This document shows, piece after piece, positions 1,343-43,531 of a DNA stretch of 64,000 nt. The stretch lies in NCBI RefSeq assembly GCF_988243305.1, contig NZ_OZ547136.1. The stretch is one strand, 5' to 3'. Position numbers and translations under genes: made by a program. The number at the start of each line of letters is the position of its first letter. Position 1 is the stretch's first letter. Below the pieces are notes generated by a model that saw only the letters and a list, made by a program, of their open reading frames with translations, ran no database searches and had not been told where the DNA came from.

Positions 1343-2719
1343 GTGAAAAACGCGTCAACCGTATCGGAAGATACTGCGTCGAATCAAGAGCCGACGCTTC
1401 ATCGCGGATTACATAACCGTCATATTCAACTGATTGCGCTGGGTGGCGCAATTGGTACTGGTCTGTTTCTTGGCATTGGCCCGGCGATTCAGATGGCGGG
1501 TCCGGCTGTATTGCTGGGCTACGGCGTCGCCGGGATCATCGCTTTCCTGATTATGCGCCAGCTCGGCGAGATGGTGGTCGAAGAGCCGGTATCCGGTTCA
1601 TTTGCCCACTTTGCCTATAAATACTGGGGACCGTTTGCGGGCTTCCTCTCTGGCTGGAACTACTGGGTGATGTTCGTGCTGGTGGGAATGGCAGAGCTGA
1701 CCGCTGCGGGCATCTATATGCAGTACTGGTTCCCGGATGTTCCAACGTGGATTTGGGCTGCCGCCTTCTTTATTATCATCAACGCCGTTAACCTGGTGAA
1801 CGTGCGCTTATATGGCGAAACCGAGTTCTGGTTTGCGCTGATAAAAGTGCTGGCAATCATCGGTATGATCGGCTTTGGCCTGTGGCTGCTGTTTTCTGGT
1901 CACGGCGGCGAGAAAGCCAGTATCGACAACCTCTGGCGCTACGGTGGTTTCTTTGCCACCGGCTGGAATGGGCTGATTTTGTCGCTGGCGGTGATTATGT
2001 TCTCCTTCGGCGGTCTGGAGCTGATTGGGATTACTGCCGCTGAAGCGCGCGATCCGGAAAAAAGCATTCCGAAAGCGGTAAATCAGGTGGTGTATCGCAT
2101 CCTGCTGTTTTATATCGGTTCACTGGTAGTTTTACTGGCACTCTATCCGTGGGTGGAAGTGAAATCCAACAGTAGCCCGTTTGTGATGATTTTCCATAAT
2201 CTCGACAGCAACGTGGTAGCTTCTGCGCTGAACTTCGTCATTCTGGTAGCATCGCTGTCAGTGTATAACAGCGGGGTTTACTCTAACAGCCGCATGCTGT
2301 TTGGCCTTTCTGTGCAGGGTAATGCGCCGAAGTTTTTGACTCGCGTCAGCCGTCGCGGCGTGCCGATTAACTCGCTGATGCTTTCCGGAGCGATCACTTC
2401 GCTGGTGGTGTTAATCAACTATCTGCTGCCGCAAAAAGCGTTTGGTCTGCTGATGGCGCTGGTGGTAGCAACGCTGCTGTTGAACTGGATTATGATCTGC
2501 CTGGCGCATCTGCGTTTTCGCGCGGCGATGCGACGTCAGGGACGTGAAACACAGTTTAAGGCGCTGCTCTATCCGTTCGGCAACTATCTCTGCATCGCCT
2601 TCCTCGGCATGATTTTGCTGCTGATGTGCACGATGGATGATATGCGCTTGTCAGCGATTCTGCTGCCAGTGTGGATTGTATTCCTGTTTGTAGCGTTTAA
2701 AACGCTGCGTCGGAAATAA
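1343..2719 (+). CDS. pheP: Phenylalanine-specific APC-family permease
   Basis: ORF 1307..2719; 12-TM amino acid permease; GTG at 1343 gives the 458-aa PheP length and follows a purine-rich RBS. Confidence 0.9.
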   Translation: MKNASTVSEDTASNQEPTLHRGLHNRHIQLIALGGAIGTGLFLGIGPAIQMAGPAVLLGYGVAGIIAFLIMRQLGEMVVEEPVSGSFAHFAYKYWGPFAGFLSGWNYWVMFVLVGMAELTAAGIYMQYWFPDVPTWIWAAAFFIIINAVNLVNVRLYGETEFWFALIKVLAIIGMIGFGLWLLFSGHGGEKASIDNLWRYGGFFATGWNGLILSLAVIMFSFGGLELIGITAAEARDPEKSIPKAVNQVVYRILLFYIGSLVVLLALYPWVEVKSNSSPFVMIFHNLDSNVVASALNFVILVASLSVYNSGVYSNSRMLFGLSVQGNAPKFLTRVSRRGVPINSLMLSGAITSLVVLINYLLPQKAFGLLMALVVATLLLNWIMICLAHLRFRAAMRRQGRETQFKALLYPFGNYLCIAFLGMILLLMCTMDDMRLSAILLPVWIVFLFVAFKTLRRK

Positions 2720-2750
2720 GGCATTCACGCTACATCCGACAAAACGATGT

Positions 2751-2784
2751 CCGCTCTCATCCATTCGATGAGAGCGGTTTTTTT
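2751..2784. terminator. Intrinsic terminator between convergent pheP and ybdG
   Basis: Hairpin ccgctctcatc / gatgagagcgg followed by a 7-T run. Confidence 0.6.
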
Positions 2785-2786
2785 AA

Positions 2787-4082
<1,296 letters not shown>

Positions 4083-37910: not shown

Positions 37911-38037
37911 TCGGAAATTCACCTAATTCTTCGGGTGCTGCGGCACCCGATTTTCTTCCCCGCACCATGATGCAAGCTGCATCCAGGTAGCCGCAGAGGC
38001 CGCTTGCATGATGATGTTTAAAGCCCAGGAGATAAAC

Positions 38038-39603
38038 ATGCTCGACACAAATATGAAAACTCAACTCAAGGCTTACCTTGAGAAATTGACCAAGCCTGTT
38101 GAGTTAATTGCCACGCTGGATGACAGCGCTAAATCGGCAGAAATCAAGGAACTGTTGGCTGAAATCGCAGAACTGTCAGACAAAGTCACCTTTAAAGAAG
38201 ATAACAGCTTGCCGGTGCGTAAGCCGTCTTTCCTGATCACTAACCCAGGTTCTAACCAGGGGCCACGTTTTGCAGGTTCCCCGCTGGGCCACGAGTTTAC
38301 CTCGCTGGTACTGGCGTTGTTGTGGACCGGTGGTCATCCGTCGAAAGAAGCGCAGTCTCTGCTGGAGCAGATTCGCCATATTGACGGTGATTTTGAATTC
38401 GAAACCTATTACTCGCTCTCTTGCCACAACTGCCCGGACGTGGTGCAGGCGCTGAACCTGATGAGCGTACTGAACCCGCGCATCAAGCACACTGCAATTG
38501 ACGGCGGCACCTTCCAGAACGAAATCACCGATCGCAACGTGATGGGTGTTCCGGCAGTGTTCGTAAACGGGAAAGAGTTTGGTCAGGGTCGCATGACGTT
38601 GACTGAAATCGTCGCCAAAATTGATACTGGCGCGGAAAAACGTGCGGCAGAAGAGCTGAACAAGCGTGATGCTTATGACGTATTAATCGTCGGTTCCGGC
38701 CCGGCGGGTGCAGCGGCAGCAATTTACTCCGCACGTAAAGGCATCCGTACCGGTCTGATGGGCGAACGTTTTGGTGGTCAGATCCTCGATACCGTTGATA
38801 TCGAAAACTACATTTCTGTACCGAAGACCGAAGGCCAGAAACTGGCAGGTGCGCTGAAAGTTCACGTTGATGAATACGACGTTGATGTGATCGACAGCCA
38901 GAGCGCCAGCAAACTGATCCCGGCAGCGGTTGAAGGTGGCCTGCATCAGATTGAAACAGCTTCTGGCGCGGTACTGAAAGCACGCAGCATTATCGTGGCG
39001 ACCGGTGCAAAATGGCGCAACATGAACGTTCCGGGCGAAGATCAGTATCGCACCAAAGGCGTGACCTACTGCCCGCACTGCGACGGCCCGCTGTTTAAAG
39101 GTAAACGCGTAGCGGTTATCGGCGGCGGTAACTCCGGCGTGGAAGCGGCAATTGACCTGGCGGGTATCGTTGAGCACGTAACGCTGCTGGAATTTGCGCC
39201 AGAAATGAAAGCCGACCAGGTTCTGCAGGACAAACTGCGCAGCCTGAAAAACGTCGACATTATTCTGAATGCGCAAACCACGGAAGTGAAAGGCGACGGC
39301 AGCAAAGTCGTTGGTCTGGAATATCGCGATCGTGTCAGCGGCGATATTCACAACATCGAACTGGCCGGTATTTTCGTGCAGATTGGTCTGCTGCCGAACA
39401 CCAACTGGCTGGAAGGCGCAGTCGAACGTAACCGCATGGGTGAGATTATCATTGATGCGAAATGCGAAACCAACGTGAAAGGCGTGTTCGCAGCGGGTGA
39501 CTGTACAACGGTTCCGTACAAGCAGATCATCATCGCCACTGGCGAAGGTGCCAAAGCCTCTCTGAGTGCTTTTGACTACCTGATTCGCACCAAAACAGCA
39601 TAA
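38038..39603 (+). CDS. ahpF: Alkyl hydroperoxide reductase flavoprotein subunit F
   Basis: ORF 38008..39603; start [13 protein letters not shown] (521 aa); redox CxxC pairs CHNCPD and CPHCDGP; FAD motif GSGPAG. Confidence 0.95.
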
Positions 39604-39632
39604 GAAGAAGTAAGATTCACCTGCAATTGCTT

Positions 39633-39664
39633 AGCCGCCGGGGTCAAACCTGGCGGCTTTTTTA
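39633..39664 (+). terminator. Intrinsic terminator of ahpCF
   Basis: agccgcc...ggcggct hairpin followed by a T run. Confidence 0.7.
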
Positions 39665-39671
39665 TGGCAAT

Positions 39672-39712
39672 AAAAAGCCCCGCCGGGATGGCTCCGGGCA
39701 GGGCGGGATATT
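39672..39712 (-). terminator. Intrinsic terminator of uspG
   Basis: GC-rich hairpin (cccgcc...ggcggg) followed on the minus strand by a T run. Confidence 0.6.
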
Positions 39713-39723
39713 TATTCTGGCAA

Positions 39724-40152
39724 TTAACGCACAACCAGCACCGGCAGATTGGCGTGGCGGATCACGCTCGAGGCGTTAGAACCTAACAGATGGGTCGAAA
39801 TCGATGGGTTGCGAGAACCGATAACTACAACATCAGCCCCCAGTTCTTCTGCCAACTCATTGACTTCATCCCGCACGCTACCAAAACGGACATGTTGCTT
39901 AATGCGGGAAGGATCGATGGTGAAGTGGCTGACCATCGTTTGCAGACGTTCTTCTGCTTCATGTTGCAGATGCTCTTCAAAACGACGCACATCAGCGGCA
40001 AAACGGTGCAGGCTCAGGCTGGCTGACCCCGGTAGTACGTGAAGTAGATGAATAACTCCGTCATCCTGGGCGAGGAATTCAGCGTGGCGAACCGCTTTGT
40101 CGCTCAATTCCATTTCGAAAACATCCACTGGCATGATGATTGTTTTGTACAT
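39724..40152 (-). CDS. uspG: Universal stress protein G
   Basis: ORF 39724..40185; start [11 protein letters not shown] (142 aa); Usp fold. Confidence 0.9.
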
Positions 40153-40275
40153 AAGCATTCTCTCCTTGTTTTTGCATGTATACATAACAGCACATTATTG
40201 GTTATGAATCTATGATTTGCGAGGCTGATTTGATCTGAATTTGCTATTGAGCTGGAAAATAAATAAAACCAGGCG

Positions 40276-40365
40276 CTACCAGCGTTGTTCAAGGTATAGC
40301 ACTGCAGCAACAATAATTGCTGCTATGAATATATAAAATGCAGTGATACCGAGAGCTTCGCTCAT
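40276..40365 (-). CDS. Hypothetical 29-aa hydrophobic small ORF (unverified)
   Basis: Translation MSEALGITAFYIFIAAIIVAAVLYLEQRW; one predicted TM helix; weak RBS; below the 60-aa cutoff of the supplied ORF track. Confidence 0.2.
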   Translation of the reverse strand: MSEALGITAFYIFIAAIIVAAVLYLEQRW

Positions 40366-40507
40366 ATGAGGTTCCGCAGATGAATAACCAGTTCAGATTA
40401 GAATGCTGCGCTTAAGAGCAAAATGATAAATCTGGTTGATATTTGAGCGGAAAGAGGATGCGAGTGCATCCTCTGGGCAAAGCGAGTTATCGCTTGTGCA
40501 GATGGGA

Positions 40508-40918
40508 TTAAAGCAGGTAGTCGCCAGCAGCTTCTGGCTGGTATTCGAGTTCCAGCACTTCAAGGTGGGTTGCAACGCCGCCCGGAAGTTCCCAGTGAAT
40601 GGAATCGCCAACGCGCAGCCCCAGCAGTGCAGCACCTACCGGAGCCATAACGGAAAGCTGAGTATTGCTGTCGGTCATTTTTGCCGGATACACCAGCGTG
40701 CGCACACGCACTTCGCCATCGCTAAGATTGCGGAATTTAACCCGGCTGTTCATTGTCACCACGTCGTGTGGCATCTCTTCTGGCGAACACATTTGGGCGC
40801 GATCCAACTCTGCGTTTAACGCGTCGGCGATTGGCAAACCAGCATAGGCGGGTTGCTCCAGCAGAATATCGATGCGTTCGGCATCCAGGTCGTTAATGAT
40901 GATAGTTGGTCTGGACAT
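40508..40918 (-). CDS. rnk: Regulator of nucleoside diphosphate kinase (GreA/GreB-like)
   Basis: 136 aa, [22 protein letters not shown]... Confidence 0.9.
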
Positions 40919-41147
40919 TTTTACTCCATGTCGTCGGTACTGCGAGTGTCGCAGATAAACATACCCAAAAGAAAACCCTCACCGTCAGGCGGCGAGGGTT
41001 TAACTCACATGATGATACTGACTGTTGCTCACTCTTTGAAGTGATTTGCGTCACATTCAGGGAATTCCTCAATGTAGCGCATTATGTATAAATCTTAATC
41101 GTCATGGTTTATGGAAGACGAATTAGCGTGTTTTGTAAATCAGAGGA

Positions 41148-41954
41148 TTAATAACCTGCTTTATCAATCACAAAGGTTTTGCCACAGTTGCCTGGGTGTG
41201 GTTGTGGCAAGAATGAGTTGGCAGAAAGCGGAGCGTTGATGGCGTCAGCTTTGATCGAGATCTGAATTTCAGTCAAATACGCAGGGTTACCCTGGCACGT
41301 TAGCTTAACTGCTTTCACGTTCTCTTTTCCCCAGCTTTTGGCAAAGGCGGCATCAAAGTCACGGCGGCTCACTGTGTTACCGTAGTTATCCGCAAGGAAT
41401 TTTCCGGCTTCGCTCTCTTTAATTTCTTGATTCAGACGTACCATCGTGCCGAAGTATGCGTCTGGATCAAAACCAAAGCAGGCACCGTGTTTGGCATATT
41501 CGTAGCGTTCCAGGCAGGAACGTCCGCCAGCTCCTGGCATGACTTCACTTAGTTTAGCTGCCGTTTCCAGCGATAACCCGGTTTCCGGCGATGAACACAT
41601 CCGGCTGGCACGTGCTTCTGGCAGATTCGGGATTGGGCGAGTAGCGCAACCGAAGCGCATCCAGCGGCGTTCATCAACACCACGGGCAGCAACCGATTTA
41701 GGCAATCCTGGCCACAGACCATGTACGGTCAGAAAATCAGCTTTGTTGGTCGTTTCGGTTTGCAGGCGACATTCATCTCGTTCGTTACGATTTCGATCGT
41801 GTTGACTCTGGCAAAATCCGGTTTGCCAGGAGAGGGCCAGGACATAGCGATCAAAATCGCCATACTGTTTTGCCTGCAACGCCACGGCGTTGGCAGAAGA
41901 GAAGGGAAGCAGAGAAACCGCGAGCAACGCGGCGTTACGCCAGAATGCTTTCAT
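41148..41954 (-). CDS. rna: Periplasmic ribonuclease I (RNase T2 family)
   Basis: ORF 41148..41972; start MKAFWRNAALLAVSLLPFSSANA (signal peptide); T2 active-site region FLTVHGLWPG. Confidence 0.9.
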   Translation of the reverse strand: MKAFWRNAALLAVSLLPFSSANAVALQAKQYGDFDRYVLALSWQTGFCQSQHDRNRNERDECRLQTETTNKADFLTVHGLWPGLPKSVAARGVDERRWMRFGCATRPIPNLPEARASRMCSSPETGLSLETAAKLSEVMPGAGGRSCLERYEYAKHGACFGFDPDAYFGTMVRLNQEIKESEAGKFLADNYGNTVSRRDFDAAFAKSWGKENVKAVKLTCQGNPAYLTEIQISIKADAINAPLSANSFLPQPHPGNCGKTFVIDKAGY

Positions 41955-42002
41955 AATGGGTGTGGAACTCATACATATACTGAATACTATCTATTAAATC
42001 AT

Positions 42003-42067: not shown

Positions 42068-43531
42068 TTAGTTCCACATGGCGAGAATCGGCCAGCCAAC
42101 CAACAGCAGCATAGAGATGTAAATCACCCCGAAGATTGCACCAAGTCGCCAGTAATCTTTTGATTTCACATAGCCACAGCCGTAAATAATCACCCCAGGA
42201 CCGGTTGCATACGGCGTCAGACAGCCCATGATACCGATAGACAGCACCAGCAGGATACACAGTTGTTCCATTGGTACGCCCGGAATACCTTTACCGACGG
42301 CCAGAATAACCGGCAGCATGGTTGCGGTGTGCGCAGACAGGCTAGCAAACAGGTAGTGTGCAAAGTAGAACACCAGAACCAGTACAATCACCGTTGCGTT
42401 TGGTGAGAATCCTTCCAGGTGCGTACTCATGGTACCGGCGAACCAGTCAATAAAACCAGAACGAGTCAGGCCATTAGCCATCACAACCAGAGTTGCCAGG
42501 TTGACCAGTGTGTTCCATGCGCTGTTATAGCGGGTAATGTCTTTCCACGGCACAACGTGCAGGGCCAGCATTAGCGAAACTGCCAGCAGACCTACCGCAG
42601 TAGCATTAATGACTTCACTGCCAAATACCCACAAACCTAAGCTGAGCAATACAAGACCAATCAGCGTCCACTCTCTGCGTGTCAGCGCACCCATGGTTTT
42701 TAGTTCATCACCCGCCCAGGTTGCCACTTCTTCACTGTGTGTGATTTCCGGTTTGTACAGCACGTAGGAAAGCCACGGCGCAATGATAAGCAAGATAACC
42801 CCAACCGGCAGGAAGCAGAGGAACCACTGCAACCAGCTAATCTGGATACCGGCAATTTTGCTGACGAACTCCAGACCCAGTACGTTTGGTGCCGCACCGG
42901 TGACAAACATGGACGAACTCAGACTGGTACTAATGACCATCATCCACATCAAATAGCCGCCAATACGACGCGCGGACGGATCGTTCGGGAATGATTTAAA
43001 CAGCGGCGGCAGGTTTTTAATGACCGGAAAAACCGTACCCCCGGTACGCGCGGTGTTGGACGGTGTAAACGGTGCCAGCAGAATGTCGATAATGACAATC
43101 GCATAACCCAACGTCAGCGTGCGTTTGCCCATGAATTTCACCAGGAAAAGGGCAATGCGACGACCTAACCCGGAAACTTCATACCCTAATGCAAAAATAA
43201 ATGCGCCAAATACCAGCCATACCGTGGTGCTGGAAAAACCAGCCAGACCCCATTTCAGCGCCTGTTTTTGCGCATTAAACGCTGGGTCAGCTAATTCTTT
43301 GGCATCAAAGAGAAGGTAATTACTGCCAATAACGCAAATAGTAACCGCAATAAAACTGATCGCTGTTGCCGGAATTGGCTCAAGGATCATGCCGACAATC
43401 ATTGCCACAAACACAGCGAAGTAATGCCATGCCTGCGGTGGCATACCGTCGGGGACAGGGATAAGAAACATGACGCCCATCACCACCAGTGGGGCCAATA
43501 GTTTCCATATATTATCTTTTGCTAAAGACAT
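42068..43531 (-). CDS. citT: Citrate:succinate antiporter (DASS family)
   Basis: 487-aa polytopic transporter. Confidence 0.9.
   Translation of the reverse strand: MSLAKDNIWKLLAPLVVMGVMFLIPVPDGMPPQAWHYFAVFVAMIVGMILEPIPATAISFIAVTICVIGSNYLLFDAKELADPAFNAQKQALKWGLAGFSSTTVWLVFGAFIFALGYEVSGLGRRIALFLVKFMGKRTLTLGYAIVIIDILLAPFTPSNTARTGGTVFPVIKNLPPLFKSFPNDPSARRIGGYLMWMMVISTSLSSSMFVTGAAPNVLGLEFVSKIAGIQISWLQWFLCFLPVGVILLIIAPWLSYVLYKPEITHSEEVATWAGDELKTMGALTRREWTLIGLVLLSLGLWVFGSEVINATAVGLLAVSLMLALHVVPWKDITRYNSAWNTLVNLATLVVMANGLTRSGFIDWFAGTMSTHLEGFSPNATVIVLVLVFYFAHYLFASLSAHTATMLPVILAVGKGIPGVPMEQLCILLVLSIGIMGCLTPYATGPGVIIYGCGYVKSKDYWRLGAIFGVIYISMLLLVGWPILAMWN

Follow-up and report, generated by a model that had tools for sequence, protein, structure and literature searches.

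A ybdR-less rnk–uspG spacer carrying the small membrane protein gene yldA is a common and deeply diverged allele in Escherichia coli

The interval between rnk and uspG in the stretch of DNA analysed here (64,000 nt from NCBI RefSeq assembly GCF_988243305.1, contig NZ_OZ547136.1; hereafter the window) is very probably a ybdR-less allele of the rnk–uspG spacer that is native to Escherichia, is present in about a third of E. coli and carries the known gene yldA. Since yldA is named, annotated and, in K-12, detected as a protein, and the absence of ybdR is a common accessory-gene polymorphism, there is nothing new in the finding as it was first noted from the sequence. Three points are retained from the comparative analysis: how deeply the E. 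coli alleles are split, the patchwork of four spacer states across Enterobacteriaceae, and the resemblance of YldA to the small protein YoaI, which may be a new lead.

Results

Layout of the interval between rnk and uspG

On the minus strand, rnk ends with its stop codon at 40508-40510 and uspG starts at 40152; the gap between them measures 355 bp (40153-40507), which bears out the approximate size given by the earlier reading of the sequence alone. Along the minus strand the order is rnk, a hairpin, a spacer of ~90 nt, yldA, 123 nt and uspG, with all three genes co-directional. The features of the region are as follows.

38038-39603, plus strand: ahpF, the only plus-strand gene among those of the region (RefSeq annotation)
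39724-40152, minus strand: uspG, universal stress protein G (ORF, RefSeq annotation of the 100%-identical strain 1190, tblastn)
40153-40275, minus strand: yldA–uspG spacer of 123 nt, with the uspG ribosome-binding site AAGGAGA at 40167-40161 and an extended -10-like element, TGCTGTTAT, at 40192-40184 (alignments)
40171-40446, no strand: haplotype-specific segment of 276 bp (blastn against K-12)
40276-40365, minus strand: yldA, small membrane protein gene of 29 codons (NF041476, RefSeq, 35 orthologues)
40366-40452, minus strand: rnk–yldA spacer past the hairpin, with GGAA at 40375-40372, TAATCT at 40400-40395 and a TCAnCC box at 40439-40434 (alignment of 24 loci)
40453-40474, minus strand: hairpin with a 9-bp stem and a 4-nt loop (RNA fold, alignment of 24 loci)
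40508-40918, minus strand: rnk, regulator of nucleoside diphosphate kinase (ORF, RefSeq annotation, tblastn)
40964-41072, minus strand: rnk leader RNA element upstream of rnk, Rfam RF01771 (124.9 bits against a gathering score of 50, E 1.2e-24)
41148-41972, minus strand: rna (ORF list and annotation)
42068-43531, minus strand: citT (ORF list and annotation)

The mechanical ORF of ahpF (38008-39603, plus strand) extends the annotated gene, which starts at 38038, by 30 nt or 10 codons at its 5′ end, so that the protein has 531 aa in the ORF list and 521 aa as annotated.

The short minus-strand ORF at 40276-40365 translates as MSEALGITAFYIFIAAIIVAAVLYLEQRW; both its coordinates and its peptide agree with what had been reported for it. 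The accompanying statement that the interval contains no ORF of 60 aa or more holds for ORFs lying wholly within the gap and fails for those overlapping it, as mechanical ORFs of 69 aa (40104-40313, minus strand), 80 aa and 127 aa extend from the gap into uspG or rnk. The 69-aa ORF was rejected as a gene, as stop codons interrupt its frame in Escherichia sp. MOD1 and in E. albertii. A 29-codon ORF by itself is not beyond chance, given that 67 ORFs of 20 aa or more overlap the 4 kb examined around the gap, and the case for the predicted gene being real rests on comparative evidence.

The 29-codon ORF is the named gene yldA

The window protein scores 59 bits on the NCBIfam equivalog model NF041476 (cutoff 45 bits, E 3.2e-16), with residues 1-29 placed on profile positions 1-29; K-12 YldA scores 57.9 bits on the same model. 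In strain 1190, whose interval is 100% identical, RefSeq names the ORF ‘small membrane protein YldA’ (WP_001287361.1), and among the matches listed YldA is also the label in every other genome with the window arrangement. The ORF is the small membrane protein gene yldA and as such already known. In MG1655, yldA (b4734, minus strand; protein YP_009518757.1) sits between ybdR (b0608, plus strand) and rnk (b0610), and K-12 YldA was found by chromosomal SPA tagging and immunoblotting in rich medium (VanOrsdel et al. 2018, Table 1, PMC6001520). That experiment demonstrates translation for the K-12 allele only; the product of the window allele is a predicted one.

The K-12 protein, MAEAFYILIGFLIMAAIIVMAVLYLENHS, aligns to the window protein without gaps. 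Both have 29 residues, are encoded on the same strand at the same distance after rnk, and share the core AAIIV-AVLYLE together with the invariant E3 and E26. However, only 15 of the 29 residues and 54% of the nucleotides are identical, and the tail reads EQRW in the window and ENHS in K-12. The surroundings differ as well: the K-12 gene ends 3 nt from the convergent ybdR, whereas the next gene in the window is the co-directional uspG, 123 nt away. In K-12, the ybdR-yldA pair is listed as an excludon, in which the convergent ybdR transcript overlaps yldA (PMC12288877).

Orthologues were gathered through 80 loci taken around Rnk homologues, one genome per species. This gave 35 distinct yldA sequences from about ten genera, including Escherichia, Citrobacter, Enterobacter, Lelliottia, Leclercia, Phytobacter, Kosakonia and Pseudenterobacter. 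Every one of the 35 has exactly 29 codons, an ATG start and no indels, and follows rnk on its strand at a distance of about 130-310 nt (mostly ~140); in the window, yldA starts 142 nt past the rnk stop codon. M1, E3, A21, V22, L25 and E26 are invariant in all 35 proteins, and the consensus tail is LERHW. Third codon positions have 2.4 times the entropy of second positions (1.18 vs 0.48), mean pairwise pN is 0.23 against a pS of 0.61, and the six nucleotide differences between the window and E. albertii genes are all synonymous, with the proteins identical at 29/29 residues. On this comparative evidence, yldA is a real coding gene under purifying selection. Of the two possibilities originally raised for the ORF, the plausible single-TM small membrane protein is borne out by the NF041476 match, the 35 orthologues and the signature of purifying selection, while a chance ORF is ruled against by a score above the cutoff of the curated YldA model and by orthologue conservation. 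Conservation in related genomes had been named as the check, and the reading frame is indeed kept in all 35 orthologues.

One E. coli genome departs from this pattern. In strain HS-02 (NZ_CP172818.1 locus, 2461-2738), the interval is of the window type, yet a deletion of ~80 bp and several indels of 1-5 nt break yldA, and no yldA is annotated; this may be real decay or an assembly error.

Two haplotypes of the interval in E. coli

The gene order of MG1655 is uspG (b0607), ybdR (b0608), yldA (b4734) and rnk (b0610), so ybdR does lie between uspG and rnk in K-12, as the sequence-only reading had stated, although that reading did not name the yldA that K-12 has there as well. The absence of ybdR relative to K-12 was confirmed too: a tblastn search with K-12 YbdR, a Zn-dependent alcohol dehydrogenase, found no remnant in the gap (best E 0.38) and no match at E<=1e-3 elsewhere in the 64-kb window. 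The alignment to K-12 that had been proposed to map the endpoints places them precisely. In blastn, the flanks of the interval are 97.0% (39600-40170) and 99.3% (40447-41000) identical to K-12, and between them (40171-40446) nothing is alignable even at word size 7. Identity ends at 40170, 18 nt upstream of the uspG ATG, and resumes at 40447, 61 nt past the rnk stop. A segment of 276 bp thus stands in place of 1611 bp of K-12, which comprise the uspG upstream region, ybdR, the K-12 yldA and part of the spacer.

How are these two arrangements distributed within the species? The 276-bp segment of the window type is present in 1817 of 5426 complete E. coli genomes, almost always as one copy per genome and never on plasmids. 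The K-12-type segment is present in 3605, and the two types together account for 5422 of the 5426. With about a third of the complete genomes carrying it, the ybdR-less arrangement is a common haplotype of E. coli, and it is also an old one. Among named strains, the window type occurs in O25b:H4-ST131, the type strain ATCC 11775 and an APEC O1:K1:H7 strain, which we take to belong to phylogroup B2, an assignment based on few named strains. The K-12 type is carried by K-12 derivatives, O157:H7, O111 and O121, presumably phylogroups A, E and B1, again judging from few named strains. A literature search combining ybdR and phylogroup returned no paper, and the ybdR papers found hold no data on its distribution.

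A genuine deletion of ybdR is seen in strain HH97 (NZ_CP116409.1 locus, 2374-3041), where a K-12-type interval keeps a 192-nt pseudogene fragment of ybdR and has an altered yldA end. With K-12 the fragment shares only about 84% identity; the yldA annotated there measures 141 nt, and part of the spacer resembles the window type, so the HH97 interval may be a recombinant third haplotype.

Age and origin of the two alleles

The 355-bp gap is collinear throughout with those of Escherichia sp. MOD1-EC7003 (93%) and E. albertii (88%), and, at about 70%, with those of Citrobacter amalonaticus S646 and three other Citrobacter. The divergence of the window type is thus graded, as vertical inheritance predicts. 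The K-12-type interval, for its part, aligns collinearly with those of C. sedlakii, Salmonella, Enterobacter and further relatives (72-77%), and both types are therefore old. For yldA, pS is 0.78 between the window and K-12 and 0.59 between the window and Citrobacter sp. R56; by this measure, the two E. coli alleles are as different as alleles from different genera. With 14 of 29 YldA residues differing from K-12, the interval is a deeply diverged allele and not K-12 minus ybdR.

Most likely, recombination through the flanking genes uspG and rnk brought one of the two alleles into E. coli, with no recent deletion involved. Since the window type is found in two further Escherichia species, the K-12 type would be the likelier import. 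The outgroups for this direction are two non-coli Escherichia genomes, those of E. albertii and Escherichia sp. MOD1-EC7003, and the K-12-type interval was seen in neither. A search for direct or inverted repeats flanking K-12 ybdR, as a mark of mobile insertion, found only short chance matches, and no repeats were found in the window gap.

Two other histories have to be weighed against this one. The sequence-only reading offered a strain-specific deletion or an ancestral state lacking ybdR. A recent strain-specific loss of ybdR, starting from a K-12-like state and with the hydrophobic ORF no more than a product of chance, would be in keeping with the position of ybdR in K-12 and with flanks 97-99% identical to K-12. 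However, it is extremely improbable given that 1817 genomes share the arrangement, that E. albertii and Escherichia sp. MOD1 have it in collinear form, that no ybdR remnant persists, that the window yldA is only 54% nucleotide-identical to that of K-12, that the true deletion in HH97 looks different, and that the ORF scores above the cutoff of the curated YldA model. We regard this history as refuted by the population, collinearity, remnant and allele-divergence data. The ancestral state lacking ybdR, the other option, fits the collinear intervals of E. albertii and Escherichia sp. MOD1. In the reverse direction, the window type may have been imported and the K-12 type, with ybdR, may be native, or both may have been kept since before the species split. 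In favour of this, the YbdR proteins of Salmonella and C. sedlakii share 92-93% identity with that of K-12, a level similar to that of the neighbouring core proteins UspG and Rnk. The collinearity of the K-12-type gap with its counterparts in Salmonella and Citrobacter (about 77%) is what vertical descent predicts, and the distribution of both ybdR and yldA across the family is patchy. Against this stand the graded identities of Escherichia sp. MOD1 (93%) and E. albertii (88%), as vertical inheritance within the genus predicts, and the K-12-type interval in none of the two non-coli Escherichia sampled. We consider the reverse or balanced scenario unlikely, and it keeps this much weight because there are only two outgroups; a window type native to Escherichia is the preferred reading.

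Four states of the spacer across Enterobacteriaceae

Among the Rnk-anchored loci, the rnk–uspG spacer occurs in four states. It measures 146-205 bp with neither gene, 351-513 bp with yldA only, 1512-1629 bp with ybdR only (e.g. Salmonella) and 1649-1789 bp with both genes. Across the 80 loci, ybdR and yldA have been gained or lost independently. The state differs between species even inside Citrobacter and Enterobacter, and Salmonella has ybdR without yldA.

An rnk copy only 82% identical to the window is found in a 300-kb non-chromosomal record of E. coli MSB1_9D (NZ_LR890350.1, 98573-99126). This points to a mis-binned contig or to a large plasmid bearing chromosomal DNA from another enterobacterium.

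Candidate transcription signals in the spacer

The hairpin downstream of rnk (40453-40474, minus strand) has the form AGAGGAUGC-ACUC-GCAUCCUCU and lies 33 nt past the rnk stop codon, in the part common to K-12. Across 24 loci of about ten genera, neither arm (AGAGGAUGC, GCAUCCUCU) shows any change and 9/9 pairs are kept, while the loop of 4-5 nt varies freely; as the arms never vary, no covariation could be seen in these 24 loci. Such sequence-level invariance exceeds what a simple terminator stem needs. The hairpin is also kept in loci lacking yldA and therefore belongs to rnk. It had been proposed at about 40455-40475 as the probable terminator of rnk. The hairpin itself is real, while its role is less clear: it has the G+C-rich stem-loop of a Rho-independent terminator, but it is followed by only two to three U (CUCUUUCCG) where at least five U in eight are expected, and it was not called as an intrinsic terminator in the terminator scan because this U-tract is short. 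A plausible reading is an rnk terminator, perhaps a leaky one, or a stabiliser of the 3′ end.

Upstream of yldA, there is a weak Shine-Dalgarno sequence, GGAA (40375-40372). In the 24-locus alignment, a TCAnCC box (40439-40434) is conserved, and A2 and T6 of the -10-like hexamer TAATCT (40400-40395) are the only invariant bases nearby; this hexamer could, on weak grounds, be the -10 of a yldA promoter. A sigma-70 scan of the gap found no consensus promoter, and yldA may consequently depend on read-through from rnk. Downstream of yldA, the terminator scan found no terminator-like site before uspG. The last ~70 nt ahead of uspG are homologous in all four spacer architectures, and a TGn-plus-hexamer (TGCTGTTAT, 40192-40184) and AAGGAGA are kept. 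Little or no variation is seen in the TG, at the T..AT positions or in GGAGA, whichever genera or architectures are compared. We infer that the TGCTGTTAT element is a putative uspG promoter. In K-12 the element is shifted by 1 nt, reading ATGGCGAAT as against ATGCTTGAAT in the nearest relatives of K-12, and uspG promoter strength may therefore differ between the E. coli haplotypes. An Rfam scan of the gap gave no RNA above threshold; a sub-threshold match to a eukaryotic snoRNA (27 bits vs 45) was dismissed as chance.

Resemblance of YldA to YoaI

The only polar residues of YldA are E3 at the N-terminus and the tail E26-Q-R-W, and the positive-inside rule places the C-terminus in the cytoplasm. 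Judged from its sequence, YldA would most likely cross the inner membrane once, with the three N-terminal residues in the periplasm and a tail of the form E-[Q/R]-[R/H]-W in the cytoplasm.

Beyond NF041476, every YldA tested matches a single further family, YoaI (NF041475). Residues 3-29 of YldA are in each case paired with YoaI 8-34, with E 4e-7 to 2.5e-4 for six YldA sequences, and YoaI in turn matches the YldA model at E 0.035, all of these being scores that the composition of a hydrophobic helix inflates. The cutoff of the YoaI model, 45 bits, is reached neither by the window YldA (30 bits) nor by that of K-12 (22.5 bits) or four other orthologues (21-30 bits). A profile built from the 35 YldA sequences scores K-12 YoaI at 18.9 bits, a value that none of 20000 full shuffles attained; when the polar ends were fixed and the TM core alone was permuted, 3 of 20000 did. 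On these comparisons, YldA appears to be related to YoaI but is not a member of the YoaI family.

In YoaI, the residues Ser26, Val27 and Glu31 do not vary, the last of them is part of the cytoplasmic tail, and the substitutions E31A and E31Q abolish both binding and activation of EnvZ (Vellappan et al., PMC11429745). YoaI S26, V27 and E31 align with YldA A21, V22 and E26, which are invariant in the 35 proteins; two of the three residues are kept, and Ser26 is replaced by Ala. Like the EnvZ activator YoaI (b1788), YldA is a small protein with a single predicted membrane pass, a gapless match from YldA 3-29 to YoaI 8-34, the motif E-x-L-x-I-T ... [A/S]-V-L-x-[L/I]-E-R with the Val and the tail Glu in register, and a predicted cytoplasmic C-terminus. 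Unlike yldA between rnk and uspG, yoaI has its own K-12 locus, yeaK-yeaL, and YoaI is 5 residues longer at the N-terminus, has Ser26 in place of Ala and belongs to a model with a 45-bit cutoff on which YldA scores 21-30 bits. Taken as a lead only, YldA looks like a paralogue of YoaI. No paper linking YldA and YoaI was found, and the YoaI paper (PMC11429745) does not mention YldA.

Discussion

What might a conserved 29-residue membrane protein between rnk and uspG do? Because the invariant residues of YoaI align with invariant residues of YldA, YoaI-like partner binding is the best available hypothesis: by analogy with YoaI, YldA would probably bind a larger membrane protein, e.g. a sensor kinase, via the invariant Glu26 of its tail. 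The match in register makes this a concrete proposal for YldA function. Many characterised E. coli small membrane proteins act as accessory or stabilising subunits, and YldA may likewise be such a subunit, comparable to AcrZ, CydX or MgtS, in a respiratory complex or a transporter, its likeness to YoaI then reflecting no more than helix design. A YoaI similarity under the family cutoff and a synteny with rnk and uspG that gives no hint of a kinase are both in line with such a role. However, residues that are invariant and exact in register, among them the Glu tested in YoaI, are more specific than generic TM likeness, and we see the subunit role as a possible if doubtful alternative.

It is very improbable that YldA damages membranes, whether as a type I toxin-like peptide or in another way, instead of acting as a regulator or accessory subunit. 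YldA resembles toxins of the Ibs, Ldr and TisB class in being short and very hydrophobic, and in K-12 the convergent ybdR transcript that overlaps yldA could act as antisense control (excludon, PMC12288877). However, the window type has no convergent gene, no antisense RNA or antisense promoter was found by the scans of the gap, and Rfam detected no antitoxin RNA there. Unlike the multi-copy or mobile type I loci, yldA occupies a single fixed chromosomal site in about ten genera, its segment is never on plasmids in the 5426 E. coli genomes, and the locus is under strong purifying selection that includes the polar end residues. The tagged protein also accumulates in growing K-12 cells (PMC6001520).

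Returning to the YoaI-like reading, one could go further and envisage a YoaI-like family of 29-34-residue membrane peptides, with YldA as its second member, that tune a sensor kinase via a conserved glutamate of the cytoplasmic tail (Glu26), with two lineage-split YldA alleles in E. coli. If this were true, the differing tails (EQRW vs ENHS) and neighbours (uspG vs the convergent ybdR) might translate into lineage-specific signalling cross-talk or expression of uspG and yldA, distinguishing strains of the B2 type from those of the K-12 type. The scheme as a whole is speculative and rather unlikely.

Irrespective of function, results on K-12 YldA and on the ybdR-yldA overlap are not directly transferable across the species, because about a third of E. 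coli, including ST131, has a 52%-identical allele in another context. The four spacer states in turn provide a natural series for the gain and loss of a 29-codon gene.
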